Of a stretch of DNA of 32,000 nucleotides, positions 1-31,271 are shown piece by piece. The notes under the pieces are model-generated. The model had not been told where the DNA came from and did not search any database. It saw nothing but the letters and a program-made list of their open reading frames with translations. The position numbers were made by a program, and so were the translations under genes. This DNA comes from Tannockella kyphosi (GTDB lineage: Bacteria > Bacillota_I > Bacilli_A > Erysipelotrichales > Coprobacillaceae): NCBI RefSeq assembly GCF_021054785.1, contig NZ_CP088239.1, forward strand, positions 720,001-752,000. Reading direction: 5' to 3'. Within the stretch, counting starts at the first letter, position 1. The number at the start of each line of letters is the position of its first letter.

Positions 1-1434
1 AATGAGTGGTATATTCGTGATACAAGTAGAAAAGTTACTTCTGTTCTTAGAGCAAGAGGTTCAGACGGAAAACATCATACCACCAATCACGCAATCTACG
101 GTTATAAAAAATGCAAAGACAATCCAAGCCAATGGCTAATTGATGAACCTGCTGCAAGTGTAGTGAAACGAATGTTTCAAATGTGTATTGATGGGAAAGG
201 TCCTTATCAAATTGCAAAGGTACTTACAGAGGAAAAAGTTGAAAGACCATCATACTATTTAGCACAAAGAGGAATGGGAAATCATATTTCAAATTACAAA
301 GCCGAAGAACCTTACTTATGGAGAGGGACAACAGTTGCACATATGTTAAGCAAACCCGAATATATGGGGCATACTGTGAATTTTCGCACCTACAAAGATA
401 GCTATAAAGATAAGCAACCGAAGAAAACAGATAAAGAAGATTGGATAATTTTCAAAGACACGCAAGAGCCTATTGTTGATGAAGCAACTTGGGAAACAGT
501 ACAAAAACTAAAGAAAACTAAGCGTAGAAGTGATACCATTGGAGAAGCCAATCCATTAACAGGACTTATGTATTGTGCTGACTGTGGAGCGAAAATGTAT
601 AATCATAGAGGTAGTGCTGGGTATGAACGAAATTGGTGTGGCGAAAAAACAGATAAAAAGCGACCTAATCGAGATGAATACAACTGTTCCACATATGACT
701 TAGCAAGGCAAGATTACAGATTTGTACCTTGTACTCAGCATTATATTCGTACAGAAGCTATTAAAAATATTTTACTTGAAACTATACAAGAAGTTAGCAG
801 ATGTGTGCAGTTAGATGAAGATAAATTTATAAATGAAATCATCAATAAGACATCATCACAACAAGAAAAATCTGTTAATTCATTGAAGCAACAAATCACA
901 AAGGATAATCGACGAGTAATAGACTTAAACAAACTAATACGACAGCTTTATGAGGACAATGTTATTGGAAAGTTAAGTGATAAGCGTTTCAATTTGATGA
1001 TTGAAGATTATGAAGAAGAACAAAAGCAACTAGAGCAATCCATTGAGCAATCAGAAACTATGCTGAAACAACTTGATGAGGAAAGTTTTAATACTACAAA
1101 ATTCATAGAACTTATTAAGAAGTACACAGATCTTAGTGAACTTACAACACCAATGATAAATGAATTTGTTGATAAAATTTTAGTGCATGAGGGCAAATGG
1201 GAAAATTATCAGAGAACGCAAGAAATAGAAATCTATTTGAATTTCGTTGGTAAAATTGAAATCACAAAAAAGGAAATTGAACTAACAGAAACTGAAATTT
1301 TGGAACAACAAGAGTTACAGAAGAAGCGAGATAAAAAACGAGAATATAATTATCGTTATATGAGGAAACGCAGAGAAAGATTAAAAGAGGAACAAACAAA
1401 AATAAAGGCTGATGAAGAAAGTAAAGGAGCGTAA
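1..1434 (+). CDS. Large serine recombinase, C-terminal part (N-terminal catalytic domain upstream of window)
   Basis: Frame 1 is open from nt 1 (NEWYIRDTSRKV...), so the track start at 163 is internal. It has a Cys-rich zinc-ribbon block (CADCGAKMYNH...NCSTYDL) and a long coiled coil. The C-terminal block FVDKILVHE...IEIYLNFVG is typical of TnpX/TndX-type large serine recombinases. Confidence 0.85.
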   Translation, partial: NEWYIRDTSRKVTSVLRARGSDGKHHTTNHAIYGYKKCKDNPSQWLIDEPAASVVKRMFQMCIDGKGPYQIAKVLTEEKVERPSYYLAQRGMGNHISNYKAEEPYLWRGTTVAHMLSKPEYMGHTVNFRTYKDSYKDKQPKKTDKEDWIIFKDTQEPIVDEATWETVQKLKKTKRRSDTIGEANPLTGLMYCADCGAKMYNHRGSAGYERNWCGEKTDKKRPNRDEYNCSTYDLARQDYRFVPCTQHYIRTEAIKNILLETIQEVSRCVQLDEDKFINEIINKTSSQQEKSVNSLKQQITKDNRRVIDLNKLIRQLYEDNVIGKLSDKRFNLMIEDYEEEQKQLEQSIEQSETMLKQLDEESFNTTKFIELIKKYTDLSELTTPMINEFVDKILVHEGKWENYQRTQEIEIYLNFVGKIEITKKEIELTETEILEQQELQKKRDKKREYNYRYMRKRRERLKEEQTKIKADEESKGA

Positions 1435-1436
1435 TT

Positions 1437-1823
1437 ATGGAACAAAGTATATTTGAAAAAATGGGTGGTACTTACATCAAAGTTGGCGATTACTATGTAC
1501 CAAATTTAGGACAGTTTGATGACAAAGAAGAAACAGATGATAGACCTTTAGGCAAGTATGGAATGATACGAGAAACATTCCTAAAAGAACATAGAAAGCC
1601 TTTATACAATCATCTGTTACTTAGTGGAGAACTACATTCCCACTTGCGTGATGTAAATGAGCAATCACAATATTTACTAGACACACTACTGCCCCAGTAC
1701 AAAGCAAATCAAGGTGTCACAGAGGAATTAAAAGCCAGTAAACAACTTCTATGGGTAGGAATGGTAAACAACATCCTAGCACAGATTGAAGAAATCATAT
1801 ACAGCGAAATTGTGTATGTATAA
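1437..1823 (+). CDS. tnpV: Transposon-encoded TnpV family protein
   Basis: 128 aa with the TnpV-type pattern GDYYVPNL...LGKYG.IR..FLKEHRKPLYNHLLLSG.L..HL...WVG..NNI....EEII..EIVY. SD AAAGGAG lies upstream and the start is 2 nt after the recombinase stop. Confidence 0.8.
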   Translation: MEQSIFEKMGGTYIKVGDYYVPNLGQFDDKEETDDRPLGKYGMIRETFLKEHRKPLYNHLLLSGELHSHLRDVNEQSQYLLDTLLPQYKANQGVTEELKASKQLLWVGMVNNILAQIEEIIYSEIVYV

Positions 1824-1833
1824 TTTAGGATTT

Positions 1834-1868
1834 AAGACGGAGCAAGTAATATTGTTTCCGTCTTTTTT
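1834..1868 (+). terminator. Rho-independent terminator after tnpV
   Basis: Perfect 8-bp stem AAGACGGA (1834-1841) / TCCGTCTT (1857-1864) followed by a T-run to 1868. Confidence 0.7.
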
Positions 1869-1911
1869 CATATAAAAAATCAAATTAAAAACAGAAAAGG
1901 AGCATTTCATT

Positions 1912-2211
1912 ATGACAAAGAAAACAATCGTAGAGCAACTCAAAGAAACACAAATCGAGATTGAAAAAACAAGAACAGAAAAGAAACAAAAGGAACATCA
2001 ACTAGAAAAGTTGCAAAAGCGTGAACGAGAAAAGAATCGAAGCAAACGCACACGCAATTTAATTGAAAAAGGTGCAATCTTGGAAAGTATCAATCCATCT
2101 ATCCAATCCCTATCCAACGAGCAGTTACAAGCATTTTTGCAACAAGTATTGCAGAGTGAGCGAGCATTGCATTTGCTTAGTAAAATGACAGCAACCGAAG
2201 ATACGCAGTAA
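1912..2211 (+). CDS. Small charged coiled-coil protein, DUF3847-like; probable relaxosome accessory protein
   Basis: 99 aa and K/E/R/Q-rich, with a central RTRNLIEKGAILES block resembling proteins found upstream of MobA/MobL relaxases in Firmicutes. SD AAAGGAG lies upstream of the ATG. Confidence 0.55.
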   Translation: MTKKTIVEQLKETQIEIEKTRTEKKQKEHQLEKLQKREREKNRSKRTRNLIEKGAILESINPSIQSLSNEQLQAFLQQVLQSERALHLLSKMTATEDTQ

Positions 2212-2213
2212 CT

Positions 2214-2338
2214 CCCTTGATTACAAGGGCGCACTTATACACCATTTACAATGGTGCGTGCGTTCTGCGAAGCAATGGGGAGCTACTCTCCCCAAACCCC
2301 TTGTGTACTTTACGAAATGGCTACACCTTGCGAGGTGT
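2214..2338 (+). promoter_or_regulatory. Candidate oriT of the MobA/MobL relaxase (cluster of four perfect inverted repeats)
   Basis: IR1 is CCCTTG/CAAGGG (2214-2229). IR2 is CACCATT-tac-AATGGTG (2240-2256), followed directly by CGTGCG. IR3 is GGGGAG/CTCCCC (2277-2293). IR4 is ACACCT/AGGTGT (2323-2338). The segment is locally GC-richer than its surroundings and sits directly upstream of the relaxase gene. Confidence 0.45.
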
Positions 2339-2378
2339 GGTCATTTTCATAAAGTCTAATAAACCGAAAGGAGCAGTT

Positions 2379-3836
2379 ATGGCAATATTTCATTGTTCTA
2401 TTAAAGTCATAAGTCGAGGTAAAAGTAAATCTGCTGTTGCGTCTGCTGCTTACCGAAGTGGTGCTAAAATAACAAATGAATATGACGGAGAAACTCACGA
2501 TTACACACACAAAGGTGGTATCTATTACAGTGCTATTTTACTACCACCCCACGCACCAAAAGAATATGCAGACCGTAGCATTTTATGGAACGCTGTTGAG
2601 ATGATAGAAAAACAGCATAACGCACAACTTGCAAGGGAGATTGAAGTGTCGATACCGAAAGAAATCCCCTCATATCTATGGCGAAGAATGATGATAGATT
2701 TTTGCAATTCTAACTTTGTAAAGCAAGGTATGATAGCCGATTTATCTATCCACAACAAAGACCCTAACAACCCTCATTGTCACATCATGTTAACTATGCG
2801 ACCTATCAAAGAAAATGGCAAATGGGGAGCAAAATCACGCAAAGAATATATACTTGATGATAGTGGTAATCGCATTAAACTTCCAAGTGGAAATTGGAAG
2901 TCAACAAAAGTTGATACAATGGATTGGAACAGCCAAGACAACGCAGAAGTTTGGCGAGCAAACTGGAGTGAGCATTGCAATCTCTATCTTGAAAATTTAG
3001 GGTGTGAAGAACGCATAGACCATCGAAGTTATGAAAGACAAGGCATTGACCAAATCCCATCTATTCATTTAGGAGTGTCAGCAAGTCAGATGGAACAAAA
3101 AGGTATTGAAACAGATAGAGGAAATATCAACCGACAAATCCATGATGACAACAAGGAAGTTAAGATAATTAAGGCAAGAATTACAAGGCTTATGAAGTGG
3201 CAAAGAGAACTAGAAGTGCAACCATTAGACTTATCGAGAGGAGAATTTAAGTCGTCTATACTTGAAAAATTAAATACAAACAAAGGCATCGTTAAAAATC
3301 AATACCAAACGACTAAAGACCTCAAAAATTATGTTAATGTATGGAATTTCTTACAAGCAAATGACATTGGAAATCTCGAAGAATTCAATGCAAAGATACA
3401 AGCGATGAATGATAGTTTCTACGCTATTAAATCAGCGTTAAAGACCATTGAGAATGATATGGGCAAACTAGATAAGCAACTTGATTTATGGGCTGAATAC
3501 GAGCAATTAAAGCCTATTAGGAAGAAACACCTAAAACTGACGAGCAAAGAGCAAAAGTCTTTTTATGAGCAACATACAACTGAACTTGACCGAGCTGAAA
3601 TTCTCAATTCTAAATGGGCGAAATTCACAAATAGTGGTGGAAAAATAAGCACTTCTACTTGGAAAAGAGAGCGTAAAGAATTAGAGCAATTAAGCAAAAC
3701 TTGCGATGTGAAGATGAAAGCATATAAAGAAGAATTAGGCAAAGCAGAGAAAATACAAAAAGTACTTGATGAATTATTTGCTGATGTAAAACAAGTGCCT
3801 ACTAAGACTAAAGAGATTGAGAGGTATTCGAAATAA
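2379..3836 (+). CDS. MobA/MobL-family (MOBQ-type) relaxase
   Basis: The N-terminus MAIFHCSIKVISRGKSKSAVASAAYRSG is the classic MobA/MobL signature, with the catalytic Tyr in AAYRSG. The histidine triad is HNKDPNNPHCHIML. SD GAAAGGAG lies 7 nt upstream of ATG 2379. The track start at 2217 runs through the oriT hairpins and is rejected. Confidence 0.85.
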   Translation: MAIFHCSIKVISRGKSKSAVASAAYRSGAKITNEYDGETHDYTHKGGIYYSAILLPPHAPKEYADRSILWNAVEMIEKQHNAQLAREIEVSIPKEIPSYLWRRMMIDFCNSNFVKQGMIADLSIHNKDPNNPHCHIMLTMRPIKENGKWGAKSRKEYILDDSGNRIKLPSGNWKSTKVDTMDWNSQDNAEVWRANWSEHCNLYLENLGCEERIDHRSYERQGIDQIPSIHLGVSASQMEQKGIETDRGNINRQIHDDNKEVKIIKARITRLMKWQRELEVQPLDLSRGEFKSSILEKLNTNKGIVKNQYQTTKDLKNYVNVWNFLQANDIGNLEEFNAKIQAMNDSFYAIKSALKTIENDMGKLDKQLDLWAEYEQLKPIRKKHLKLTSKEQKSFYEQHTTELDRAEILNSKWAKFTNSGGKISTSTWKRERKELEQLSKTCDVKMKAYKEELGKAEKIQKVLDELFADVKQVPTKTKEIERYSK

Positions 3837-3854
3837 AAGTTAATATTCTGTCAA

Positions 3855-3883
3855 TTGACAAATGGCTAGAAATCAAATATAAT
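3855..3883 (+). promoter_or_regulatory. Consensus sigma-A type promoter of the R-M operon
   Basis: TTGACA (3855-3860), a 17-nt spacer, then TATAAT (3878-3883). The -35 box is embedded in the perfect 12-bp palindrome TGTCAATTGACA (3849-3860). Confidence 0.65.
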
Positions 3884-3918
3884 TACAAGTAGGATGTTTT
3901 AGGATGTGAGGTGTACTT

Positions 3919-5856
3919 ATGAGATTTATAGGCAGTAAGACTGCTTTGGTAAATGAAATAGAAAATGTAATAAATGAAAATACAATTGGCAATGAACAAA
4001 TTTTTTGCGACCTTTTTTCTGGCACGGGGACTGTCGCAAGGCATTTTAAATCAAGATATGAAATATATTCAAATGATTTATTGCATTTTTCTTATGTAAT
4101 TCAAAAAGCAACAATAGAAAATAATGAATTGCCACAATTTTTGAAGCTAAAAGAATTAGGTATCGTTGATCCATTTAGTTTTTTGGAGGAAACACCAATT
4201 GCTGATTGCAGTTACGATGAATACTTTATTACTCAAAATTATTCTCCAAATAAAAACTGTGATAGAATGTATGTATCAAACAAAAATGCAACTCGAATTG
4301 ATTTTATTCGCAATACAATAGAAGCTTGGAAACAATCTAGTTTGATTAATGACACAGAGTATTTTTATTTACTTGCAGGATTAATTGAGGGTGTTCCTTA
4401 TGTTTCAAATATTACTGGTACTTATGGTGCTTATTTAAAAGAATGGGACAAACGCACTTATAAAGAATTTGAAATGAGAAGATTAGAAGTTCTTGATAAT
4501 AAGAAAAACAATCGTTGTTTTAATACAGATGGTGGAAAATTAATTGAAGAACTTGAGGGAGATATTTTATATCTAGACCCACCATATAATTCTAGACAAT
4601 ATGCACCTAACTATCATCTGCTAGAAACAATTTCAAAGTACGATTACCCTACAATAAAAGGTGTAACTGGGATGAGAGATTATGCAGAGCAAAAATCATT
4701 ATACTGTGTTAAATCTGAAGTTTTATCAGCTTTTGATGACTTGATTTCTAAGGCAAAATTCACACATATCGTTGTAAGTTACAGTAGTGATGGCTTAATG
4801 AGTGCAGAACAAATTGAAGCTGTTTTGAAAAAACATGGTATCAGTGATACGTTCAAAAGATATGATATTCCATATAGAAAATACAAAGGTAAATTATCAA
4901 AACAAGCAGATACATTGTATGAATATATTTTTTATATCAAAAAAGATTTTATTTTGGAAAATAGTGATATTATTTCTTCTTTTCCTAACAATACAATGGT
5001 TATGCAGTCAAAGAAATATATTAAAAGTCCTCTAAATTATATTGGTGGAAAATATAAATTACTACCGCAGATTATGCCATTGTTCCCACCTCAAATTAAT
5101 ACTTTGGTCGACCTTTTTTCAGGTGGTGCTAATGTTGGGATTAACACTAATGCTAATAGTATAATTTGTAATGATATTAACACAAAAATTATAGAAATGT
5201 TTACAGCATTTCAGCAAATAGATGAACAAGAAATAGTATTTCAAATTGAAAGAAATATTAAAAGTTTTAAGTTATCTAAGGAAAATCAAGAGGGTTTTTT
5301 GAAATTCAGAGATTACTACAATAACTGCCCAAATCCGATAGATTTATATACATTAGCTTGCTACTCTTTCAATTATCAGTTTAGGTTTAATAATGACCTT
5401 AAATACAATAATCCGTTTGGGAAAAACAGAAGTCAATTTTCAGAAAATATGAGAACAAATTTATTACTATTTGTGCGAAAGTTAAAACATACAAACATTC
5501 GATTTACAAACATGGATTTTGCAAGGTTTGATATATCAAACTTAGGAGAAACAGATTTAGTATATTGTGACCCACCATACCTTATTACTACAGGAAGTTA
5601 CAATGATGGTAATAGAGGTTTTAAGGATTGGGGCGAAAACGAAGAAACAGAACTGTATGAACTTTTAGATAAATTGAATGTGCAGGGAGTAAAGTTTGCA
5701 TTATCCAATGTGCTAACACACAAAGGTAAAACTAATGAAATACTTATGAACTGGAGCAAGAAATATAAAGTTGTTCACTTGAATTTTGATTATTCTAATT
5801 CAAGCCATAATACTGTAAAGGGGGTAAGTGATGAAGTGTTGATAATAAACTATTAA
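3919..5856 (+). CDS. Tandem two-domain N6-adenine DNA methyltransferase, M.FokI-like (type IIS)
   Basis: 645 aa starting MRFIGSK as in M.FokI. Domain 1 has FCDLFSGTGTV and DPPY (4576-4587). Domain 2 has NYIGGKYKLLP, VDLFSGGANVG and DPPY (5569-5580). SD GAGGTG lies upstream. Confidence 0.9.
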   Translation: MRFIGSKTALVNEIENVINENTIGNEQIFCDLFSGTGTVARHFKSRYEIYSNDLLHFSYVIQKATIENNELPQFLKLKELGIVDPFSFLEETPIADCSYDEYFITQNYSPNKNCDRMYVSNKNATRIDFIRNTIEAWKQSSLINDTEYFYLLAGLIEGVPYVSNITGTYGAYLKEWDKRTYKEFEMRRLEVLDNKKNNRCFNTDGGKLIEELEGDILYLDPPYNSRQYAPNYHLLETISKYDYPTIKGVTGMRDYAEQKSLYCVKSEVLSAFDDLISKAKFTHIVVSYSSDGLMSAEQIEAVLKKHGISDTFKRYDIPYRKYKGKLSKQADTLYEYIFYIKKDFILENSDIISSFPNNTMVMQSKKYIKSPLNYIGGKYKLLPQIMPLFPPQINTLVDLFSGGANVGINTNANSIICNDINTKIIEMFTAFQQIDEQEIVFQIERNIKSFKLSKENQEGFLKFRDYYNNCPNPIDLYTLACYSFNYQFRFNNDLKYNNPFGKNRSQFSENMRTNLLLFVRKLKHTNIRFTNMDFARFDISNLGETDLVYCDPPYLITTGSYNDGNRGFKDWGENEETELYELLDKLNVQGVKFALSNVLTHKGKTNEILMNWSKKYKVVHLNFDYSNSSHNTVKGVSDEVLIINY

Positions 5857-5875
5857 CATTTCTCACAGATACGAT

Positions 5876-7648
5876 ATGATAAATATATTACCTACACACG
5901 CAACATCTTTTAGAGCTTTTGGTTGGGTACAAGACCCAAGTAATTTCAGAAGCCTTTGTGATGTGGTTGCGATATTTGATGAAAATTCTAAGAAACACAA
6001 CGATTTGAAAGATACAATCATACCTCGTCTTGTTGAGGAAAGGGATGGCAAAGACAGACTGTTAAAATCAATGGATAGTAGACCATTAAAACTATCATAC
6101 CTAGATTTAGTTGGTACGTCTTTTATGCCTCGTGGTTCAGCAAGATGTAATGGTATCGTGCAAGCTACTGTTATTGGTCAAGTTAGGGAATTTATAAGCG
6201 ATTGGCCAGCAGACAATTTTGTCCGCTGGGCATATGCCTTTGGTTTCATCAAGTATAATTATTCTGATGATACCTTTGAAATTACAGAAAAAGGGTTGGA
6301 ATTGTCATTAGCAAAAACTCTTGGTGATGATTTGAATGAAATAGAAAAAGAGTTACTGACTACTGCAATACTAGCATACCCGCCTGCTGTTAGAATTTTA
6401 AGATTATTGAGCGAAAACGAGGGAACGCACCTTACGAAATTTGAAATAGGGAAACAATTAGGCTTTATAGGCGAGGATGGATTTACAAGTTTACCTCAGT
6501 CAGTTCTTGTGCGTGAATTAGCTATAACAGATGATGCAAAAGAAAAGAATAAAATGAAAGCTGATTGGGATGGGTCGTCTGATAAATATGCAAGAATGAC
6601 ATCGAAATGGTTGGCGAAATTAGGCTTAGTTATTCAAAAGCCAAAGAGAATAACCGTTACTATAGCTGATGAGACTTATACGGAAACGATAGGGCAGGCA
6701 TATATTATCTCAGCAAGTGGAATATCTGCACTTAATAGAACTATTGGCAAAAGTAAACATAAAAGAATAGCTAAAAATGTATGCTTTGAAATGTTAGCAA
6801 CAAAAGGAAGCGATCGAGAATACCTAAGAACAAGAAGAACTTATATTTTGAAATTCATTTCAGAAAATAAAGGTGAAATTAGATATGATGAAGTTAAGGA
6901 AAAATTGAAACAAGTCGCTTTTGAAGAAAGTATTGAAACTATTAAAGCAGACTTAAAAGGACTAATTAATTTAGGGCTTAATATACAGGTTTATGCTAAT
7001 TCTTGTATTTGGAATGATGAAATAAATGAGTTCACACTTCCGTTGACACAGAACTTGACAAAATCAAGCTTGACTGAGATAAAAGAAGAAATCAGACCTT
7101 ATATTACACATATTTCTCACGAATACTTATCACTTATTGACTTAGCTTATGACAGTAAACAAAATAGATTATTTGAGATGAAAACACTTGAATTATTGAT
7201 TGATGAATGTGAATACAACGGACTTCATTTAGGTGGAAGCAGGAAACCAGATGGAATTATTTATACCAGTGAAGATGCTGAAAATTATGGTGTAATTATT
7301 GATACAAAAGCATATTCAAAAGGCTATTCTTTACCAATATCACAAGCTGATGAAATGGAAAGATATATCAGAGAAAATCAAACAAGAGATGATGAAGTTA
7401 ATCCGAATGAATGGTGGAACAATTTTGACAATCGCATTTCAAAACATTATTTTATGTTTATATCGGGGCATTTCATTGGCAACTATAAATCACAAATCGA
7501 AAGAATAAGCAGAAACACAAATACAAGAGGAACATCTTTAAATGTGAAAAATTTGCTGCTGTGTGCTAACCTCTATAAGGCAGGCGAGCTGACTCATCAT
7601 AGTATAGGGGAAAAAATAAATAACAGTTATGAGTTTGTGCTACAGTAA
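5876..7648 (+). CDS. FokI-like type IIS restriction endonuclease
   Basis: 590 aa with long colinear matches to remembered FokI: FGWVQ(D/N)P, AYPPAVRIL, HLTKFE.GK.LGF.GE.GFTSLP, W.GSSDKYARM, REY.RTRR. The cleavage domain has HLGGSRKPDGIIYT (Asp 7250-7252), VIIDTKAY (Asp-Thr-Lys 7301-7309) and QADEMERYIRENQTR. Confidence 0.9.
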   Translation: MINILPTHATSFRAFGWVQDPSNFRSLCDVVAIFDENSKKHNDLKDTIIPRLVEERDGKDRLLKSMDSRPLKLSYLDLVGTSFMPRGSARCNGIVQATVIGQVREFISDWPADNFVRWAYAFGFIKYNYSDDTFEITEKGLELSLAKTLGDDLNEIEKELLTTAILAYPPAVRILRLLSENEGTHLTKFEIGKQLGFIGEDGFTSLPQSVLVRELAITDDAKEKNKMKADWDGSSDKYARMTSKWLAKLGLVIQKPKRITVTIADETYTETIGQAYIISASGISALNRTIGKSKHKRIAKNVCFEMLATKGSDREYLRTRRTYILKFISENKGEIRYDEVKEKLKQVAFEESIETIKADLKGLINLGLNIQVYANSCIWNDEINEFTLPLTQNLTKSSLTEIKEEIRPYITHISHEYLSLIDLAYDSKQNRLFEMKTLELLIDECEYNGLHLGGSRKPDGIIYTSEDAENYGVIIDTKAYSKGYSLPISQADEMERYIRENQTRDDEVNPNEWWNNFDNRISKHYFMFISGHFIGNYKSQIERISRNTNTRGTSLNVKNLLLCANLYKAGELTHHSIGEKINNSYEFVLQ

Positions 7649-7650
7649 AC

Positions 7651-8373
7651 ATGGAAAGGAAAGAACTATTGCGTAAATTACCAAACTACATCAATGAAAA
7701 TGCAAAATACAATAATCGATATGTAGCATTCATTGATATTTTAGGATTTAAAGAGCTAATTCTCAAGACGGATTTTCGTAATATCACATCCGTTTTTGAT
7801 AAAATAACACACGAGATATTTTGCTTTGACAGTACACTTGCATTATCTATAGGTATACCCAAATATTCTCAGATCAATACCTATATTATGTCAGATAGTG
7901 TTGTATTAAGTATTGATGTTGACGCACCTCAAGCTCTGATTGCACTTGTTAAAGCAACTGCATATATTCAAACAGCTTTAATAAAAAGAAATCCATCAAT
8001 CCTATCTCGTGGTGGGATTTCCATCGGAGAATATTATCAAGAAAGAGATAAAGCCTTTGGTTCAGCACTTGTTAAGGCTCATCAATTAGAAAGTTGTAAA
8101 GATAAAGGAAAAGGGGCAATATTTCCTCGTGTAATATTCGATAATGACATTTGTTTAGAACAAATAAAAGAGAGTATTATTCTTGATGATTATGACGGAT
8201 TATATTTTGTTGATTATCTGAAAGTGGCTTTGAAAGGCAGTTCTTTTCAATCGTTTATCAAAGAAGATATTAGCAAAAAACAATTATGTGTATCCGATAA
8301 TAAGATTAAAGAAAAGTATGATTGGTATGAAAAATATTATAAGCTATCAATGGATAAAATAAAGAAAATGTAG
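7651..8373 (+). CDS. Stand-alone minimal palm-domain nucleotidyl cyclase-like protein (class III cyclase / GGDEF / mCpol superfamily); function unknown
   Basis: 240 aa with ATG 3 nt after the endonuclease stop. The ordered motifs are VAFIDILGFKEL (7729-7749, beta1 metal Asp), IMSDSVVL (7888-7905, second Asp), SRGGISIGE (8005-8031) and GSALVKAHQLES...GAIFPRVIF (from 8059). This is colinear with cyclase-homology domains (F.D..GFT / GD / R.GIH.G / G..VN.A.R.ES..pG.I.vs). The gene call is solid but the functional call is tentative. Confidence 0.5.
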   Translation: MERKELLRKLPNYINENAKYNNRYVAFIDILGFKELILKTDFRNITSVFDKITHEIFCFDSTLALSIGIPKYSQINTYIMSDSVVLSIDVDAPQALIALVKATAYIQTALIKRNPSILSRGGISIGEYYQERDKAFGSALVKAHQLESCKDKGKGAIFPRVIFDNDICLEQIKESIILDDYDGLYFVDYLKVALKGSSFQSFIKEDISKKQLCVSDNKIKEKYDWYEKYYKLSMDKIKKM

Positions 8374-8409
8374 TATATAAAATCTAAAACAACTAAATAT
8401 CTGATGCTG

Positions 8410-8455
8410 AAAGCACTTATTTACTTTGAATACCAAAGTTAATAGGTGCTTTTTG
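8410..8455 (+). terminator. Rho-independent terminator closing the R-M/cyclase operon
   Basis: 19-nt arms AAAGCACTTATTTACTTTG (8410-8428) and CAAAGTTAATAGGTGCTTT (8434-8452) pair at 17/19. The loop is AATAC and a T-run follows. Confidence 0.6.
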
Positions 8456-8481
8456 CATTATCAAAGAAAGGAATAACTAAT

Positions 8482-8658
8482 ATGGAAAATCAAACATTAA
8501 AGCAAGACACGAACACTAAAAATCGTTTTAAAAAGAAAATTGGCAAGACTATCTATGAAGTAACTGTATACTCCAGTCAAACGAGTAAAGAAACCTTGCA
8601 AGATAAGATGGAGAGATTGATTGAAAACGAATGTGTAAGTATTGTAAATCAGGAATAA
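8482..8658 (+). CDS. tnpW: TnpW-like small transposon protein
   Basis: 58 aa from ATG 8482 with SD AAAGGA upstream. The block KKIGKTIYEVTVYSSQTSKETLQDKMERLIENE matches the remembered TnpW family pattern (IG.TTY.V.V.FS.TS.ET..DK..RL). The track start at 8446 (GTG) lies inside the terminator stem. Confidence 0.55.
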   Translation: MENQTLKQDTNTKNRFKKKIGKTIYEVTVYSSQTSKETLQDKMERLIENECVSIVNQE

Positions 8659-8686
8659 ATAGTATATTTTCTTAAACTACCCTTGA

Positions 8687-9370
8687 CAAAACGCAACAGA
8701 TGATACACTTCTTTCAGCTATGGAAAATGCAAACAATGCAGAAGTTGATACGGATATGAAAGGGATTGGAACACCTGCAACTCGTGCCGGTATTATGGAA
8801 AAACTCATTAAAACTGGTCTTGTAGAACGTAAAGGTGATAAGAAAGTAAAATATTTTATCCCTACACACAAAGGCATTGCACTTGTGACAGTATTGCCCG
8901 AAGATATTCAGTCCCCACTACTAACAGCAGAATGGGAAGAAAAATTAAAGGAAATCGAACAAGGTAAGCTATCGGCAAATGCCTTTTTAGAAGAAATTTC
9001 TAGTATGACTACTTCTCTAGTAAACACCTATGAATGTATCAAGGGAGCAAATACTCTGTTCCCTAGAGAAAATGCAGGTGCTAAAGTCGGCACTTGCCCT
9101 CGATGTGGAGCTGATGTAACCGAGAATAAAAAAGGCTTTTGCTGTTCCTCTAGAGATTGTCAATTCGCAATTTGGAAAGAAAACAAGTTCTTTACTGCTA
9201 AGAAAAAAACAGTAACCAAAGCTCTTGTATCAGAACTACTAAGTAAAGGTAAATCTACTCTCAAAGGTTGCTACTCAGCTAAAACTGGAAAGAATTATGA
9301 TTGTATCGTAGTGCTTGATGATACTGGTGGTAAGTATGTAAACTTTAAGATGGAGTTTGGGAAAAAGTAG
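8687..9370 (+). pseudogene. topB: 3' remnant of DNA topoisomerase III (topB), about the last 227 codons
   Basis: The frame opens at 8687 just after an in-frame TGA, and similarity precedes the first ATG (TDDTLLSAMENAN). It contains the type IA topoisomerase motif GIGTPATRAGI and a C-terminal Cys4 zinc ribbon (CPRCG...CSSRDC). The roughly 450-aa N-terminal catalytic part is absent. A short product from ATG 8720 is possible. Confidence 0.75.
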
Positions 9371-10030: not shown

Positions 10031-10055
10031 ACCACTTCTACGGAGGTGGTTTTCT
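10031..10055 (+). terminator. Terminator-like hairpin immediately upstream of the 934-aa gene
   Basis: A 7-bp stem CCACTTC/GAGGTGG with a UACG loop (10032-10049), followed by TTTTCTTA. It is preceded by the conserved box AAAATAAATCTAATTAAA (10000-10017). Confidence 0.55.
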
Positions 10056-10087
10056 TATGCCCAAAAACAAGAAAGGAGCTATATAAT

Positions 10088-12892
10088 ATGGCTGAAAACG
10101 ATGTAAAACAATCTCCGAAAGAGAGATTAAAAGAAATTACCGACAGCATTGAAACTGGGATACAAAATCTTTTCGAGAGTGAAAAGTATATGCAGTATCT
10201 TAAAACCATGAGCAGATTTCACAAGTATTCCCTAAACAACACCATGCTCATTTCAATGCAAAATCCCGATGCGACTTTAGTTGCAAGTTTTAACAAATGG
10301 AAAGATACTTTTTCTCGTAATGTGAAGAAAGGTGAAAAAGGAATTAAGATTATTGCCCCAACACCTTACAAAATCAAAGAAGAACGAGAAAAACTTGATC
10401 CAATCACCAAAGCACCAGTCCTTGATGCTAACGGACAAATTGAATTAGAAGAAGTTGAAAGACAGATACCTATGTTCCGTGTGGTATCTGTCTTTGACGT
10501 TTCACAGACTTATGGTGAGCCACTCCCTACACTTGCTAATGATTTAACTGGAAATGTGGAACAATTCGATACCTTTATGGAAGCACTAAAACGCACTTCA
10601 ACAGTACCGATTGAGTTTAATCCAATAGCAGATGGCTATTATCATCTTGTAGATAAGAAAATTGTTATTCGTGAGGGAATGAGTGAAGTACAAACTATTT
10701 CAGCTCTTATTCATGAGATTGCACATTCGAGATTGCACGATTATGAATTTAAAAGACAGGCACAGCAAGAAGAAAATGCAGCACCTATTGAACCGAAAAG
10801 TCGTAATACCGAAGAAGTAGAAGCAGAAAGTATTAGCTTTGCTGTTTGTAACTATTATGGCATTGAAACAAGTGATAATAGTTTTGGTTATATTGCGAAT
10901 TGGAGCAAAGATAAAGAATTAAAGGAGCTTAAATCTTCTCTTGAAACAATCAATAAGACTTCATCAGAATTGATTACTTCTATCGACAAGCATTTTACAG
11001 AAATCACAAAAGAACATGAACAAGAAGTTGTTGTGGCTGTTCCACTTAGCAAAGAATTAGAAATTGCAAGTGCGATTGATAAATTTGCACAAGACTTTGA
11101 TCCTTATGAGTACAACGACCAAGTTGCAGATACAGAAAGTCACATCAATGAAATTGCCGATAATCTTAGAACTGGCAACACGAAAGCAATCAAAGATTAT
11201 TTAGTAGGTATTGATTTTAACGACCAACCTCATGAAAAGCTAAAGGCAAACAAACTTATGGAAGAAATCTATAAATATGAGATGTTCAACTATCCTCGTG
11301 AACTTGCCTATAAGATTGGTGATGGTTATCTTGCTATTCATGACTGCGATGAGGGATTTGATTACAGCTTTTATGATATGGACTTTAACCTAATTGATGG
11401 TGGTGTCTATGATGACATTGAACTTAACATTTACGAAGCAATTCATGAGGTTGCAGAATTTGATGATGGTTTTTCTATTTGGGATAGAGAAAATGTAGAA
11501 AAAGTTGACTATGAGGATTTAACAGAAAAAGCTGAAAATATAGAATTATCAAAAGTGGTAGGAACTGTAAAGTATAGTGATGTTACCAATGAGTTTGTAA
11601 TTTCATCACCACTATTTAAAGATGCTAACCTGCCACTATATACTAATCGTGAAGGTGAAAAGTTTGTCTTTGGTTTTGGTAATTTAGGTGGTGGCACAAA
11701 TGTATGGAACTTCCTTGATGAAACCAATAATGACTACACCAATGTGGCACATATTTCAGATACTGGAGAACTAAAGCTATTAGTCGATAATCTTCCCGAT
11801 ACTGCAAAAAAAGCACTTGAAGAAAAGGCAACAGAAATTCGTAGTGAAATTGAAACACAAATGAAAATGCCCGATCCAAATGTAACACTAGATGAAATGT
11901 TTGATTATGGTTATACAGCATTAGAACTTCTACCACTATCAAAAGAAAGAGCCTTAGAACTCTACAATGAGGATTTAACTATTTATGCCTTATATCCCGA
12001 TGATAGCGAAGGTATGGTTTTTGAATTAAGCGAGTTTGAGGAACATGAGGGTTATTTTGGTATCGAAGTGGTTGACTGGGAAAAATATTTAGACTTGCAG
12101 AAAATGAAGGAACATCAATGGAGCTTATCTTCACAAGAAGAAAAAGCCTTTGTAGAACGAAAAGACGAAAGTTTTGCTATTTATCAATTAAAATCGGGAA
12201 CTGAGTTTAGAGATTATCGTTTTACTGGTGCTGAAGAATTGGAACGCATGGGGAAAGAAATTGACAGAGATAATTACAATCTTATCTACACCGATGGACT
12301 TCAAAATGTAGAAAATGTAAGTCATGCTCTAGAGTGCTTATATTATGATTTCAACCACGATAAACCCGATGATTTTATCGGTCATTCTTTGTCAGTTAGT
12401 GACACCGTTGCTATCAATATGAATGGTGCTGTATCATATCATTATGTTGATACAGTAGGTTTTAAGGAGCTAGAACACTTTGTAGCTCCTAATCCCGACA
12501 ATCATTTAACTGGAGAGAAAATTGCTACTCCACGAGGGAATTTCTTTTTAACATCATTAAGTAAAGAAGAAATGCAGGCTCAAGGTTATGGTGTTCACCA
12601 TAATTCGGACGATGGCAGATATGCGATTATGGGTAATGGTACAATCGCTTATGCAGTAGCAAATGAAAATCCACTTAAAAATGCAGAAATTAGCACAGAG
12701 CAAAATTTCAATATGATTGACGGAACTCTAAACAATCAACCAACAGTTGCTGAACTGGAGCATGATGCAAAGAATGGTAAGCCTATTTCACTAATGGATC
12801 TACTCGATGCAACACGCAGGGAACAAAAACAACAACCAAAAGTAAAAAAAGAAAAGCAGGCACAATCTAAAAGTGCAGAAATGGAGCGATAA
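10088..12892 (+). CDS. ArdC-like polyvalent antirestriction protein (ArdC-N ssDNA-binding domain + HExxH metallopeptidase + YodL-like + DUF4316-like tail)
   Basis: SD AAAGGAG lies 10 nt upstream of ATG 10088; the track start (GTG 10046) is inside the terminator. ArdC-N pattern: YSLNNTMLISMQNPDATLVASFNKWKDTFSRNVKKGEKGIKI. HEIAH is at 10712-10726. A YodL-like block FAIYQLKSGTEFRDYRF and the tail NPLKNAEISTEQNFNMIDG are present. Confidence 0.8.
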   Translation: MAENDVKQSPKERLKEITDSIETGIQNLFESEKYMQYLKTMSRFHKYSLNNTMLISMQNPDATLVASFNKWKDTFSRNVKKGEKGIKIIAPTPYKIKEEREKLDPITKAPVLDANGQIELEEVERQIPMFRVVSVFDVSQTYGEPLPTLANDLTGNVEQFDTFMEALKRTSTVPIEFNPIADGYYHLVDKKIVIREGMSEVQTISALIHEIAHSRLHDYEFKRQAQQEENAAPIEPKSRNTEEVEAESISFAVCNYYGIETSDNSFGYIANWSKDKELKELKSSLETINKTSSELITSIDKHFTEITKEHEQEVVVAVPLSKELEIASAIDKFAQDFDPYEYNDQVADTESHINEIADNLRTGNTKAIKDYLVGIDFNDQPHEKLKANKLMEEIYKYEMFNYPRELAYKIGDGYLAIHDCDEGFDYSFYDMDFNLIDGGVYDDIELNIYEAIHEVAEFDDGFSIWDRENVEKVDYEDLTEKAENIELSKVVGTVKYSDVTNEFVISSPLFKDANLPLYTNREGEKFVFGFGNLGGGTNVWNFLDETNNDYTNVAHISDTGELKLLVDNLPDTAKKALEEKATEIRSEIETQMKMPDPNVTLDEMFDYGYTALELLPLSKERALELYNEDLTIYALYPDDSEGMVFELSEFEEHEGYFGIEVVDWEKYLDLQKMKEHQWSLSSQEEKAFVERKDESFAIYQLKSGTEFRDYRFTGAEELERMGKEIDRDNYNLIYTDGLQNVENVSHALECLYYDFNHDKPDDFIGHSLSVSDTVAINMNGAVSYHYVDTVGFKELEHFVAPNPDNHLTGEKIATPRGNFFLTSLSKEEMQAQGYGVHHNSDDGRYAIMGNGTIAYAVANENPLKNAEISTEQNFNMIDGTLNNQPTVAELEHDAKNGKPISLMDLLDATRREQKQQPKVKKEKQAQSKSAEMER

Positions 12893-12894
12893 TT

Positions 12895-13110
12895 ATGAAA
12901 TTCACAGTTGAAGAAACAAACCTAATGTGCATTTATGGTACGGACTCAAGACAAGGCTTGATTGCAGAGCTTGAAGAAATGCAACCACATTTACAAGAAG
13001 ATGAAGTAGAGTTAGTAGACCTTACAAGGTCCACTCTAGCAAAACTTCATACTATGAGTAATGAAGAATTTGAGGAAGTAAAAAGTGAACTGGTAGCTGA
13101 TTTTGAGTAA
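12895..13110 (+). CDS. Transposon-transfer assisting family (TTRAP-like) small protein
   Basis: 71 aa. The N-terminus FTVEETNLMCIYGT and the acidic tail match the remembered family pattern (FT.EE.NLMCIY.T). The start is 2 nt after the upstream stop, with GGAG upstream. Confidence 0.55.
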   Translation: MKFTVEETNLMCIYGTDSRQGLIAELEEMQPHLQEDEVELVDLTRSTLAKLHTMSNEEFEEVKSELVADFE

Positions 13111-13182
13111 TAAAATAAATTTTCTTATTAACATTTGAACTGTAGATTTTTGATATTTATTTATGGTATACTTTATGTGCGT

Positions 13183-13245
13183 AGATTATCTTGATAATCT
13201 AAAGGCAACGAAAACACGGTTGAAATACCGTGCAATTTATATAAT
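13183..13245 (+). promoter_or_regulatory. Twin-hairpin conserved leader motif, copy B
   Basis: Hairpin 1 is AGATTAT-cttg-ATAATCT (13183-13200). Hairpin 2 is CACGG-ttgaaata-CCGTG (13215-13232), followed by CAATTTATATAAT. An extended -10-like TGGTATACT lies about 20 nt upstream. Confidence 0.55.
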
Positions 13246-13285
13246 CTCATAGGGTGCTGAAATCAAGTGTGCAAAGGAGGATATA

Positions 13286-13489
13286 GTGAAAAGATTTGAA
13301 AAGGTTTTCTACTTAGTAGAAGTGTTAATTATAGTAATTTTTATTTTAACATGTCATTTTATTTCCCAAATCGAATTTAACAGTAATGGTATAATTGTTT
13401 TGCTATTATCTTTATTATTAACTGTGTTAGCATGTGCATTGAATGTAGCTGTATTGATACTACAAAAAGAAAAAAATAAAAGTGAGTAG
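13286..13489 (+). CDS. Small two-TM membrane protein
   Basis: 67 aa with a GTG start and a strong SD AAGGAGG 6 nt upstream. It has two hydrophobic helices. Confidence 0.5.
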   Translation: MKRFEKVFYLVEVLIIVIFILTCHFISQIEFNSNGIIVLLLSLLLTVLACALNVAVLILQKEKNKSE

Positions 13490-13576
13490 TAAATATCTGG
13501 TTGCCGAACATAATGAGCAATACACTTGTACCAGTACCAAAAACAAAAAACGAATAAAATAAATCTAATTAAACAT

Positions 13577-13612
13577 AGCACTTGTTGACTAAACCTCAAT
13601 GAGTGCTTTTCT
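13577..13612 (+). terminator. Terminator-like hairpin immediately upstream of the 2614-aa gene
   Basis: AGCACT (13577-13582) pairs with AGTGCT (13602-13607), with an inner TTGA/TCAA pairing, followed by TTTTCTTA. It is preceded by the same box AAAATAAATCTAATTAAA (13556-13573). Confidence 0.45.
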
Positions 13613-13643
13613 TATACCCAAAATTTAACTAGGAGGAAAAATT

Positions 13644-16600
13644 ATGGCATTAAAACGAGAAGAAGTTGCCCAGTTGTATGAAAATACCTCTAGGCAAGTA
13701 ACCAGTAGTCTTGCGAATTGGACTAACTTTTTAGAAGTTGTTGGCAAGCTCTACAAATATCCTTACCATGAGCAGCTTATGATTTACGCACAAAAACCCG
13801 ACGCCACTGCTTGTGCTGAGTTCGGTTTATGGAACAATCGCATGAATAGGTATGTAAAACGAGGTACAACGGGTATCGCACTTATTGATCCGAGTAACGA
13901 TAATCAGAAAATCAAATATGTCTTTGATTTAGCAGATACGGGTGGCAAAGAAAATGCACAACGACCTTTGTTGTGGGAAATGCAAAATCACCATGAAAAA
14001 CCAATCCTTGAAATGCTACAAGATAAATTTGATGTATCAAGTGATAATCTGTATGAAGCAATCGACATCATTGCAACAACACTATCAAAAGAGTATTATG
14101 ATGACAACAAAAAGGATATTCCTTATCTTGTAGAAGATAGTTTTTTAGAAGAACTTGATGATTTCGATATTGAGCAAACTTTTAAAAATGCTTTATCAGT
14201 CAGTGTTGCTTATACTCTTATGAAGCGATGTGGACTTGATACAGAGGATAGATTTTCACATGAGGACTTCTTACCTATCTTCGATTTTAACACTACTGCT
14301 ACTGTTACATTCTTGGGTACAGCAGTAAGTGAACAAACGGAACAAGTATTTAGAGAAATTGCAAAAACCATTGTAAAAACCATTGTAAAAACTGAAAGGA
14401 GCATACAACATGAACAACTTGACTTACAAAACGGAGGGCGATTACAAAATCCCGAACTTGGAATTGAAACAAGAACAGCCAGTAACACTGGGCAAATATG
14501 GGAAAATGAGAAAAGCACATCTCATGGAACATCGCAAACCATTATTCAATCACCTACTACTGAGCGAGAAATTGACAGCTCATCTAGTGGAAATCGACCA
14601 AACAGCGAACAGACGAATGGAACAGTTGATGAAAGACCTCGAGAAGAAACAACCGTCACCGAACAAGATGACACACCAACTAGAATGGGTAGCACATCAG
14701 AACAGCCTACAAGCACAGGCAGAGGAAGTAATCTTGACGGAGTTGATTTACAGCTAAGACCTACTCTTGATGATATTGTGCTTGATGAAACTGTTAAGCC
14801 ACAGCAAATGAGCCTATTTCCAACCGAAGAACAACAGATTACAAGTATAGCCGACAGACAAAATGCCAACACACTCAGTGTGACAGCAAAAAGTCAGTCG
14901 GCTATTTCTATTTCAGAAGAAGAAATCATTCATGGCTTACTAAGAGGAACTGGATTTGTTGATGGGAAATTGCGTGTATATGATTTGTATCAAAAGGATT
15001 TATCACCTAAAGAAATTGCCAATTCTATCAAGTCCGAATATGGACATGGTGGAGGAAGTCACGACTATTTAGATGGTAATAGAGGTTGGATAGATTGTGA
15101 GCCTTCCAAAGGATTATTATTTAGTATTCATGGTATTGAGGGAAAATTCAAATTATCGTGGTCTGATGTTGAAAAGAAAATTAGGTCATTAGTTACTAAT
15201 GACAGTTATTTAACTATGGATGAAAAAGCAAAGTATGAAGAACAACAACTCGCTAAAGCAGGAATTGATAGTAAATTTTTCTTAGATGATGAAGAATTAT
15301 CGGGTATCGTAAATAACTTTATATTAGCTAGTGATGTAACGGATCAAACATTGCAACATCAAACAGATATTTATGAAGCATTTGTCACTCAAACAAGTCT
15401 TGAAGATAAATTGAGTTTGATTAAATCTACCTACGGAAATCTTGATACATCTTACGTTACTGAGGGTGGTGATTATCTTGAAGAAGTAAAATCCGACGTG
15501 ATTGGAATTAACTTTAAACGAGGTGGTCAGCCTTTTTCTGTTACCTATGATGATATGGTTACTCGTATTGATACTCTTATTGCAAATAACGATTATCCTC
15601 ATAAAGAAGATGTTGTAGAAATCACGCAAGATGACATTGACAATGCTATTTTAGAATGGAATGGTGATGAAGAAAGCAAAGCTCGTGTTCTATCTTATAT
15701 GCGTGAACATAGTCGTGAACGAGGTACTGCACTATGGTTACAAAATGAGTATGGCAATAATCTTCCTGCATTACTTGTTGTAAAAGGTGAATTATCTGAA
15801 AGTATCCCTTGGGCAAAAGTGCAGCGACAACTTGGCAAATTCATTGCTGAAGATAAATTCTTTGTGACAGATAGCAAAGATAGATACACCCTAGAACAGA
15901 CCTCAGATGCCTTTGAGGAGCCTTTTGCTGTAAGGGATAATCTAATCCCCGATAACTCACTAGACCGTTACCATGCAGTAGAGGGGCATATACAGACCTT
16001 TGAAACAGAGGAAGATGCACAAACAGTTATTGAGCAGTTAAATGATAATGCAAGATATACAGTTAAGTATATTACAGAGGGATTTGACAGTTCCTATGTA
16101 CTTGATGATAAAGAATTTGACATTGAGGGATTTGTAAAGCATGAATACGCAGATTTGTTCTATCAATCCTATGGAACTCGTGAAGAAGCACAAGCAGTTG
16201 CAGATAAACTTAATGCACTTTCAGAACATACTCCACCCGAGTTGATTTTCTTTGTTGATTTTAAAGATGTTGATATTGATTACTCAAAGTACAATGATAG
16301 AGATGTCATTGGTTATAATATTGATGGTGTTAAGTACACAGTTGGAAAAAGTGGGGATTTAACTTATACAACGCAAGAAACAGCTATTACACCTTATGGT
16401 GAAGTGCTAGGCGATAATATGACTGCTGATGTATATGAGAAATTCAAAGCTTGGAAAGAAAGCCTTTCAGCTCCACAAGAAGAAATCACAGAACCAGTAC
16501 AAGTGGTAAAAGGTGAAAACTTCCGTATTACAGATAGTGATTTAGGTCATGGAACAAAGTCTGAAAAATACAAAGCGAATATGCAAGCTATTAGAACTTT

Positions 16601-21488: not shown

Positions 21489-21824
21489 ATGGCAAATAGA
21501 CAACGGAACATTCGATTACAATGTAGAGTTACGGAAGAAGAGAAAGCTCTTGTGGAGAGAAATATGCAACACCTCGGAACGAAGAACTTAGAAGCATATC
21601 TTAGGAAAATGGCAATAGATGGTTACATATTACAGCTAGATACTTCAGATATAAGAGAGCTAGTTAGATTGCTTAGAGTAACCAGTAATAGCTTAAATCA
21701 ACTTGCAAAACGTGCAAATGAAACGGGGAATGTATATCGTGATGATATAGAAGAACTAACAGAAAGCTATGATAAAATGTGGAATATGGCAGAGGAAATT
21801 ATGGTACGACTAGCGAGTATATAA
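21489..21824 (+). CDS. mobC: MobC-family relaxosome accessory protein
   Basis: 111 aa. R.I.L..RVTEEEK (RHH-like N-terminus) and SNSLNQLAKRAN are typical of MobC. The ATG abuts the giant gene's stop. Confidence 0.8.
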   Translation: MANRQRNIRLQCRVTEEEKALVERNMQHLGTKNLEAYLRKMAIDGYILQLDTSDIRELVRLLRVTSNSLNQLAKRANETGNVYRDDIEELTESYDKMWNMAEEIMVRLASI

Positions 21825-21837
21825 GTAGTGATTTAGA

Positions 21838-21860
21838 CTTCGTCCCAAATTGGGACGAAG
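21838..21860 (+). terminator. Terminator-like hairpin after mobC
   Basis: Perfect 10-bp stem CTTCGTCCCA/TGGGACGAAG with a 3-nt loop. The downstream T-run is weak (TTGCTAT). Confidence 0.45.
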
Positions 21861-21956
21861 TTGCTATCACAGTAAAAATGATGACATCATGGACTGAATT
21901 TTTGACTCTTGATATACTAGTAGTGGAACTAGAAAATTAATAGCAGGAGGTAGAAA

Positions 21957-22241: not shown

Positions 22242-22245
22242 AAAT

Positions 22246-22278: not shown

Positions 22279-22283
22279 TACTT

Positions 22284-31269: not shown

Positions 31270-31271
31270 AT

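Follow-up and report, generated by a model that had tools for sequence, protein, structure and literature searches.

We analysed a 32,000-nucleotide stretch of the Tannockella kyphosi genome (contig NZ_CP088239.1, positions 720,001 to 752,000), hereafter the window. A gene at positions 7651-8373, here termed X, is the third gene of an operon that also encodes a FokI-like type IIS restriction-modification (R-M) system. According to its structural model, the product of X is a stand-alone protein with the fold of a class III nucleotidyl cyclase, that is, with a cyclase homology domain (CHD). The widespread family to which X belongs has a conserved metal site and is recurrently embedded in R-M operons of several types, making X a good candidate for a novel anti-phage enzyme in a back-up role.

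R-M operons are already known to harbour accessory defence genes, and cyclase-fold enzymes are already known in immunity. What is newly described here is the X family itself, with its architecture lacking an effector and its distribution over R-M systems of different types; no published description of the family was found in the literature searched, coverage of which was incomplete.

Fold and active site of X

An AlphaFold (AF2) model of X built on 60 homologues has a predicted local distance difference test score (pLDDT) of 88.8 and a predicted template modelling score (pTM) of 0.86. A Foldseek comparison of the model with the Protein Data Bank (PDB) returns 61 matches at E<=1e-3; class III domains of adenylyl or guanylyl cyclases make up the whole of the top 50 (E = 1e-6 to 4e-4), among which there is no GGDEF protein. 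The original prediction for this locus, made from the letters of the sequence, had proposed a cyclase-type palm domain and modelling as a check, and the model bears the palm fold out. It had also entertained kinship with mCpol/Cas10 or GGDEF proteins. This part did not hold, as the modelled fold is that of class III cyclases and the second motif is SDS, not GGDD. GGDEF diguanylate cyclases also differ from X in that X has no GGDEF motif. In the viral structure library BFVD, the best match is named "Response regulator", the second is a guanylate-cyclase-domain-containing protein, and GGDEF proteins appear at E = 0.04-0.06.

Kinship with class III cyclases is also detected by sequence profiles. 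A profile of the X family finds only eight matches among PDB sequences, all of them class III cyclases. Searches with X as a single protein against Pfam, NCBIfam, PADLOC and PDB sequences return nothing, and matches in PHROGs are solely to families of unknown function. The class III cyclase model PF00211 is matched weakly: one of the 60 members reaches E = 0.009, the member P0239 reaches 19.3 bits where the cut-off is 21.9, and X itself does not match. One family member carries the automatic UniRef name "Class 3 adenylate cyclase".

A profile alignment places the motifs of the X family in register with those of class III cyclases (FIDILGF/FADIVGF, SDS/GDS, LRGG/LRVG and AYxLES/ASRMES, respectively). 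In this alignment, D29 and D82 of X fall on the aspartates of FADIVGF and GDS in Rv1625c-type cyclases, and they are thus the counterparts of the metal-binding pair of class III enzymes, which reside on strand beta1 and on the beta2-beta3 hairpin. The original prediction had listed four palm motifs in order, with both metal-binding aspartates; these motifs occur far beyond chance and are invariant or nearly so in two sets of relatives. Among the 60 homologues, D29, G32, D82, R120, G121, E147 and R160 are all invariant. A second set of 86 genomic members, retrieved independently, has S81, D82, R120, G121 and R160 in every sequence and D29 in 84 of 85; at the position of E147, 75 have Glu and 11 have Gln.

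Four other residues of canonical cyclase active sites are not maintained. The positions equivalent to the base-specifying pair (Lys/Asp for ATP, Glu/Cys for GTP) vary among the 86 members, with T, S, K or Y at position 78 and I, Y, K or M at position 134. Equivalents of the transition-state Asn/Arg pair (VNxAxR) are similarly unconserved, with V, I, T or S at position 141 (Asn in 6 of 86) and L, T, E, K, I or Q at position 145. X has Y78, K134, V141 and Q145, and the replacement of the Asn/Arg pair was read correctly in the original prediction. Because these four residues are unconserved in the family, a role of X as a standard cAMP or cGMP cyclase is unlikely.

The palm core is followed by a C-terminal extension that is matched by no model in Pfam, NCBIfam or PADLOC. 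Among the genomic members, K222 is found in 85 of 86 and W225 in 79 of 86. The claim that X has no sensor or effector domain thus stands as regards known domains, and is to be amended by this conserved helical extension of residues ~190-240. X resembles class III CHDs (PF00211; for example, Rv1625c, CyaB and soluble adenylyl cyclase) in its palm fold, in the motif order FxDIxGF, (G/S)D, RxG, ES and in both metal-binding aspartates. In contrast to these proteins, X lacks the specificity and transition-state pairs, falls below the gathering score of PF00211, has no sensor domain, carries the KYxW extension and is found in the setting of R-M operons and mobile elements.

Several lines of evidence bear on whether the proteins dimerize. 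Four independent members (P0103, P0170, P0175 and P0215) are tandem fusions in which one half has all motifs and the other half lacks a catalytic Asp or the RGG motif. The same pattern of one canonical and one degenerate half is known from pseudo-heterodimeric class III cyclases. An AF2 model of P0103 (pLDDT 84, pTM 0.69) finds its best matches in single-chain two-domain cyclases, which align with both halves over 445-495 columns, with a template modelling score relative to the query (TMq) of only 0.42-0.49 and a high root-mean-square deviation. These matches include human soluble adenylyl cyclase (4usw, E = 6e-9), the soluble domains of AC9 and the class III-like ATP-binding protein 6yii; against single-domain cyclase chains, TMq is ~0.25. 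In addition, one type I operon contains two adjacent canonical X-family paralogues between hsdS and hsdM (L034:4966-6822). The tandem halves, the modelled match to soluble adenylyl cyclase and the paired paralogues argue, if indirectly, for a dimeric unit in which at least one functional active site is under selection. Such selection is suggested by the fact that the metal-binding aspartates are invariant and that one half of the tandem fusions stays canonical.

Genomic context of X and its relatives

X is co-transcribed with the genes for the FokI-like methylase and nuclease from the operon promoter (Table 1). A consensus scan of positions 3700-9000 finds one perfect promoter site, upstream of the methyltransferase gene, and no further strong site between it and X. 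The methyltransferase matches Pfam MethyltransfD12 in two stretches (E = 4e-72) and PADLOC MTase_II over its full length (E = 3e-282). The endonuclease carries all four FokI Pfam domains (D1, D2, D3 and cleavage; E = 1e-24 to 6e-76) and matches PADLOC REase_II (E = 3e-178). Its TAA stop codon (7646-7648) is separated by 2 nt from the ATG of X, and the 240-codon open reading frame (ORF) described in the original prediction is present exactly there. An alternative in-frame start is the TTG at 7669, which is preceded by the Shine-Dalgarno-like sequence GAAAGGAAAG (7654-7663); the NCBI record of an identical protein (P0001, Tannockella kyphosi, 234 aa) agrees with this start. With either start, the consensus scan finds no promoter or terminator between the endonuclease gene and X.

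A terminator had been predicted directly behind X. The consensus terminator scan finds no canonical intrinsic terminator 3' of X; what is present there is a stable 25-bp hairpin (-29.3 kcal/mol, z = -7.3 versus shuffled sequence) with no U-tract behind its stem. This hairpin is a possible operon end, not a canonical intrinsic terminator.

To survey the neighbourhoods of homologues, we used the best-scoring 80 of at least 344 species-level loci (L012-L091), a sample that leans to gut Bacillota. Genes were called with a simple ORF caller, and their neighbours were clustered and checked by Pfam. The only widely recurring neighbour families are three type I R-M subunits, which Pfam confirms. X-family genes are found inside R-M or bacteriophage exclusion (BREX) operons in 16 of the 80 species, namely 13 operons of type I and a single one each for type III, type IIG and BREX. 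The type IIS operon of the window is an additional case. In 12 type I loci the X-family gene lies between R-M subunits, in the order hsdR-hsdS-X-hsdM or hsdM-hsdS-X-hsdR, and in 10 of these 12 it is directly behind hsdS, with overlapping stop and start codons. A further type I locus (L068) has the order hsdS-hsdR-X. Within the type I set, L081 and L075 are arranged as hsdM-...-hsdS-...-X-...-hsdR, holding one or two extra embedded genes. In the remaining cases, the gene is located behind an MmeI-like type IIG enzyme (L079), behind a type III Res (L040) or behind BrxC and a PglX-like methylase of a BREX system (L074).

The same tendency is apparent in 100 immediate neighbours on the same strand, among which N6_Mtase (10) is the most frequent Pfam family, followed by Methylase_S (9), HsdM_N (8), Eco57I (8) and ResIII (4). 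AbiH, AAA_21 and PD-(D/E)XK families are present too, and PADLOC agrees. As background, defence proteins make up ~0.4-0.65% of RefSeq proteins (bioRxiv 10.1101/2025.01.08.631966). The R-M-embedded members are only 22-54% identical to one another and are scattered over the family dendrogram; therefore, the association is old or recurrent, and does not reflect one spreading clone. The original prediction had called a signalling-type enzyme in an R-M operon unusual and had proposed a survey of homologues; the survey reveals that the linkage is not a one-off. Because the fold is that of a cyclase, the metal-binding aspartates are conserved and linkage to defence genes recurs, the core of that prediction is upheld.

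No conserved small partner or antitoxin was found near X-family genes in the 80 loci by blastp and phmmer, R-M subunits being the only conserved neighbours. No conserved membrane, CARF or other effector adjoins them in the 80 genomic loci, nor, by gene clustering, in 51 viral loci. The lack of an adjacent effector gene, first remarked on for the window, is thus matched across the surveyed family.

The second recurrent partner is a ParA/MinD-like ATPase (AAA_31, ~350-375 aa), whose gene is directly 5' of those for short X-family members (215-239 aa). These pairs were found in Paenibacillus and Pseudomonas, in three viral contigs and in a toxin-antitoxin island from a metagenome. The ATPases from Paenibacillus, Pseudomonas and the metagenome (L054, L150 and L152) are 52-59% identical to one another, and the ParA-like and X-family genes look like a mobile two-gene cassette. 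Tetratricopeptide repeat (TPR) proteins occur with the family as well. In P0239 an X-family domain is followed by a C-terminal TPR_10/TPR_12 array, and elsewhere a 975-aa TPR protein is encoded 36 nt 5' of an X-family gene (L006:5037-7964). These arrangements may represent a sensor-output pairing.

FokI-like nucleases that are 69-76% identical to that of the window have the same arrangement of methylase and nuclease genes, with different flanking genes. In one set (L093:5261-8104), a gene for a 947-aa SIR2 protein (ThsA/Dsr-like) follows the nuclease gene after a 38-nt gap and is itself followed by one for a 577-aa protein. In a second set (L097:717-2995), PARIS-like AriA/AriB genes are directly 5' of the methylase gene, and a 223-aa unknown protein is also encoded. 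The R-M operons at L093 and L097 share 74-75% identity with that of the window. A third set has small unknown proteins in its flank. None of the genes tested behind close FokI homologues belongs to the X family. Known abortive-infection or R-M-guarding genes thus flank two of the three FokI-like relatives examined. Because SIR2, PARIS-like or unknown genes replace X in these relatives, the flanks of FokI-like R-M systems appear to hold variable cargo, and this R-M type seems to attract cargo of the abortive-infection kind. The nearest relative of X itself, P0002, is a fragment (residues 58-211) with no FokI gene alongside, and therefore gives no presence/absence comparison.

The family is large. 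A word-indexed search retrieved 102 homologues of X, and a profile search of 1.84 billion cluster representatives retrieved 18,133 clusters (counted at 50% identity) at E<=1e-3, a number that falls to 12,310 at E<=1e-10 and to 4,973 at E<=1e-30. Nearly all of the best 150 profile matches stand alone and are 220-300 aa long. Members are encoded by at least 344 GTDB species, and these include Bacillota, Proteobacteria, Bacteroidota, Fibrobacter, Treponema, candidate phyla and one archaeon. X-family genes are present on 54 plasmids, including megaplasmids, where their annotation is always hypothetical or absent. In phages they are rare, being present in 51 of the 2.9 million viral contigs. One setting is that of P2-like Burkholderia phages, in which a member adjoins the integrase gene and attP, a site past which prophage accessory cargo is often found. 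In Burkholderia phage phiX216 (L092:3423-4843), gp47 is a 314-aa X-family member located 2 nt behind the gene for a 157-aa hypothetical protein, gp46, and the pair lies ~0.5 kb past attP and the integrase gene.

The mobile element and the rest of the window

The X operon is carried on an integrative and conjugative element (ICE). Positions 163-3836 and 10046-25257 of the window encode a serine recombinase, a MobA_MobL relaxase (2217-3836), an ArdC-N/LPD16/YodL polyvalent protein (10046-12892), a 2614-aa protein (13644-21488) whose sequence motifs have the look of a fused methylase and SNF2-type helicase, and a MobA/VirD2-type relaxase (23857-25257). The two different relaxases suggest that two mobile elements are nested or adjacent.

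Downstream of X, the ORF at 8720-9370 encodes a C-terminal piece of a topoisomerase, covering positions 336-410 of the 411 in Topoisom_bac and a Toprim_Crpt repeat; a TnpW-like ORF (8446-8658) precedes it. The methylase, nuclease and X genes occupy the place of the 5' part of this topoisomerase gene, which suggests that the cassette arrived by insertion or replacement.

Table 1. Features of the X operon and of X in the window, and ParA-like genes upstream of X-family members in other loci
Feature	Coordinates	Strand	Basis or remarks
Promoter-like site TTGACA-17-TATAAT	3855-3883	+	12/12 matches; 36 nt 5' of methyltransferase start
Double-domain Dam-type (D12 class) N6-adenine methyltransferase, M.FokI-like	3919-5856	+	Operon gene 1
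FokI-like type IIS restriction endonuclease	5876-7648	+	Operon gene 2
X, stand-alone class III cyclase-fold protein (by model)	7651-8373	+	Operon gene 3; 240 aa from ATG, 234 aa from alternative TTG
Cyclase-homology (palm) core of X, residues ~19-189: FIDILGF (D29), SDS (D82), RGG (R120), LES (E147), PR (R160)	7705-8217	+	AF2 model, profile alignment, conservation
Family-specific C-terminal helical extension of X, residues ~190-240, near-invariant K222 and W225 (KYxW)	8218-8370	+	Model secondary structure, conservation
Long hairpin, possible operon end	8402-8460	+	RNA fold; 29 nt 3' of X stop
ParA-like ATPase upstream of X-family member	L054:4901-5968		
ParA-like ATPase upstream of X-family member	L150:4907-5992		
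ParA-like ATPase upstream of X-family member	L152:4890-5990		
ParA-like ATPase upstream of X-family member	L119, L127, L129		

A second R-M operon, of type III, occupies 25465-32000 on the minus strand, with Mod at 28579-30555 and Res at 25465-28542. It is led, with gaps of 0-2 nt, by genes for two weakly paralogous proteins of ~237 aa. One of these is complete (30556-31269) and has two hydrophobic segments; the other extends from 31272 to past 31985 and is truncated by the end of the window. PADLOC gives no match for either, and Pfam none for the complete one. The two are a further uncharacterised accessory pair coupled to R-M on the same element. The original prediction had recorded both proteins, which do exist and are the first genes of the Mod/Res operon, and had speculated on a link between them and X. 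This link finds no support, as homologues of the pair are absent from loci L012-L091 and from the loci of an earlier look-up.

Possible functions of X

Genes inside type I R-M or BREX operons are likely to be new defence genes, and a survey based on this principle of guilt by embedding collected 3,231 embedded families, with more than 50% of the embedded genes unexplained (Payne et al., bioRxiv 10.1101/2024.01.29.577857). X, in contrast, resides in a type IIS FokI-like operon, outside that survey, and matches no model of PADLOC v2.0.0. Among known embedded genes, prrC of the EcoprrI type I locus is comparable to X as an accessory gene near hsdS in a type I operon. The layout of L081 and L075 is the one described for prrC, and both PrrC and PARIS are regarded as guardians of R-M systems (PMC12707154). 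However, PrrC consists of an ABC-ATPase and a nuclease and is therefore unrelated to X in sequence and fold; X has no nuclease domain or other obvious killing domain, and no PADLOC PrrC model matches it. Pycsar, in which the cyclase PycC is paired with a transmembrane (TM) or TIR effector, is a precedent for a class III-type cyclase fold in anti-phage defence. X differs from Pycsar in that it yields no PADLOC Pycsar match at E<=1, has no conserved effector neighbour and has different catalytic residues beyond the metal-binding aspartates.

We give about an even chance to the reading that X is an effector-less cyclase-fold enzyme that serves as a second-line defence module co-expressed with R-M genes. 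The catalytic activity, product, trigger and defence role that we infer for X are as follows. Judging from the models, X would most likely dimerize head to tail, with D29 and D82 making up a two-metal site and FxDILGF serving as the phosphate-binding loop. Its motifs suggest that it would perform metal-dependent nucleotidyl transfer on a nucleoside triphosphate (NTP), which might yield some other cyclic or linear nucleotide, or amount to plain NTP consumption. The product is probably not ordinary cAMP or cGMP, because the purine-specifying and transition-state residues are lacking. Because no effector gene is linked, the options are conversion or depletion of NTPs, or a signal for an unlinked receptor.

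On this second-line reading, X would stay silent while restriction works. A phage or plasmid that escapes or blocks restriction would trigger X, and the ensuing nucleotide conversion would cause cell arrest or create a signal. Such a role would be of the abortive-infection kind, by analogy with the PrrC, PARIS or SIR2 genes at comparable positions. The alternative partners of the family (R-M complexes, ParA-like ATPases and TPR proteins) would fit an output module that is attached to different sensors.

Several facts weigh against a second-line defence role. Approximately 80% of the sampled members have no adjoining R-M genes, some neighbours are housekeeping genes (for example, those for PolA, alanyl-tRNA synthetase and a sulfatase) and many loci have no informative neighbour; these figures come from simple ORF calls in a best-scoring sample that leans to gut Bacillota. 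Four canonical cyclase residues are absent, so X might bind an NTP without turnover. Signalling would have no visible target, as no effector or receptor is linked. Finally, PADLOC v2.0.0, whose models we take to include 145 phage defence candidates (PDCs), does not have the X family among these 145 embedded candidates.

The alternative that survives best, although rather unlikely, is that X is a non-catalytic NTP-binding subunit that binds HsdS/HsdM or the FokI-like nuclease and tunes restriction versus modification, for example during establishment in a new host. The overlap of stop and start codons with hsdS and hsdM, together with the 2-nt gap to the FokI-like gene, suggests stoichiometric co-expression, and 6yii, which the PDB title calls a class III-like ATP-binding protein, shows that the fold can bind nucleotide. 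A binding role alone, however, does not readily account for invariant metal-binding aspartates or for tandem fusions in which one half is canonical and the other decayed. Moreover, most members have no R-M neighbour, and others are accompanied by ParA-like or TPR proteins.

X might also be a selfish or offensive gene that benefits its conjugative element or prophage and not the cell. It could act as a toxin-like addiction module, or as an enzyme that counters defence, for example by perturbing host nucleotide signalling. We consider this quite improbable. Its location on an ICE with an ArdC-type polyvalent protein would suit such a role, as would the relatives by attP in temperate phages, on megaplasmids and in a toxin-antitoxin-rich island. 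However, X-family genes are also inside chromosomal type I operons, between hsdS and hsdM, and behind BREX, type III and type IIG genes. X is transcribed with defence genes, not with the anti-defence genes of a leading region, and no conserved antitoxin-like partner accompanies the family in the 80 loci.

That X is an ordinary second-messenger cyclase, which makes cAMP or cGMP for regulation in the host or element and whose place in the operon is incidental, is very improbable. The class III fold, the metal site and the automatic name of one member are what this explanation predicts, but the specificity and transition-state pairs are unconserved, the PF00211 score is sub-threshold, no sensory domain is present and the family occurs on mobile elements, prophages and plasmids and in R-M operons.

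mCpol, the OptS protein of Panoptes, was reportedly defined by Burroughs et al. in 2015. X resembles mCpol and the Cas10 palm as a small palm protein, presumably nucleotide-converting, that has no fused sensor and is found in a defence context. In contrast to X, mCpol has Cas10 homology, has an obligatory neighbouring 2TM-beta or CARF-TM effector and is defined by a GGDD active site (PMC12657230). A Panoptes-like arrangement, in which X is an mCpol whose decoy cyclic nucleotides restrain the two-transmembrane (2-TM) proteins at 30556-32000, is extremely improbable: X is indeed a small palm protein with conserved metal-binding aspartates and no fused effector, and two paralogous membrane proteins are encoded on the same element, but the modelled fold matches class III cyclases and not Cas10/mCpol, SDS takes the place of GGDD, a distance of 22 kb separates X from the 2-TM genes, which occupy the opposite strand in an operon of their own, 0-2 nt from the type III mod gene, their homologues are absent from the loci searched, and the X family has no conserved membrane partner in the 80 genomic loci or, by gene clustering, in 51 viral loci. 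The identity of X as mCpol is contradicted by the lack of GGDD, of a Cas10-type fold match and of an adjoining 2-TM or CARF effector.

The second-line defence reading can be extended to the family as a whole. In this extended form, X would be the founding member of a widespread class of single-protein immune enzymes, each an effector-less cyclase-fold dimer coupled, physically or functionally, to R-M systems (types I, IIS, IIG and III, and BREX), switched on when restriction fails or is inhibited and aborting infection by NTP conversion or by a novel nucleotide signal for an unlinked receptor. We regard this specific R-M-guarding version as unlikely, against the about even chance given to a defence enzyme in general.

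The operon of methylase, nuclease and X is small and has one promoter, and is therefore easily cloned. For a family of at least 12,000 clusters with no entry in Pfam, NCBIfam, PADLOC or the PDB, these results would supply a fold, a predicted active site and a testable biological setting. If the second-line role of X is true, a cyclase-fold enzyme without a partner effector would join the nucleotide-based immune mechanisms, and the idea of PrrC- or PARIS-type back-up for R-M systems would extend beyond type I to FokI-like, type III, MmeI-like and BREX systems.

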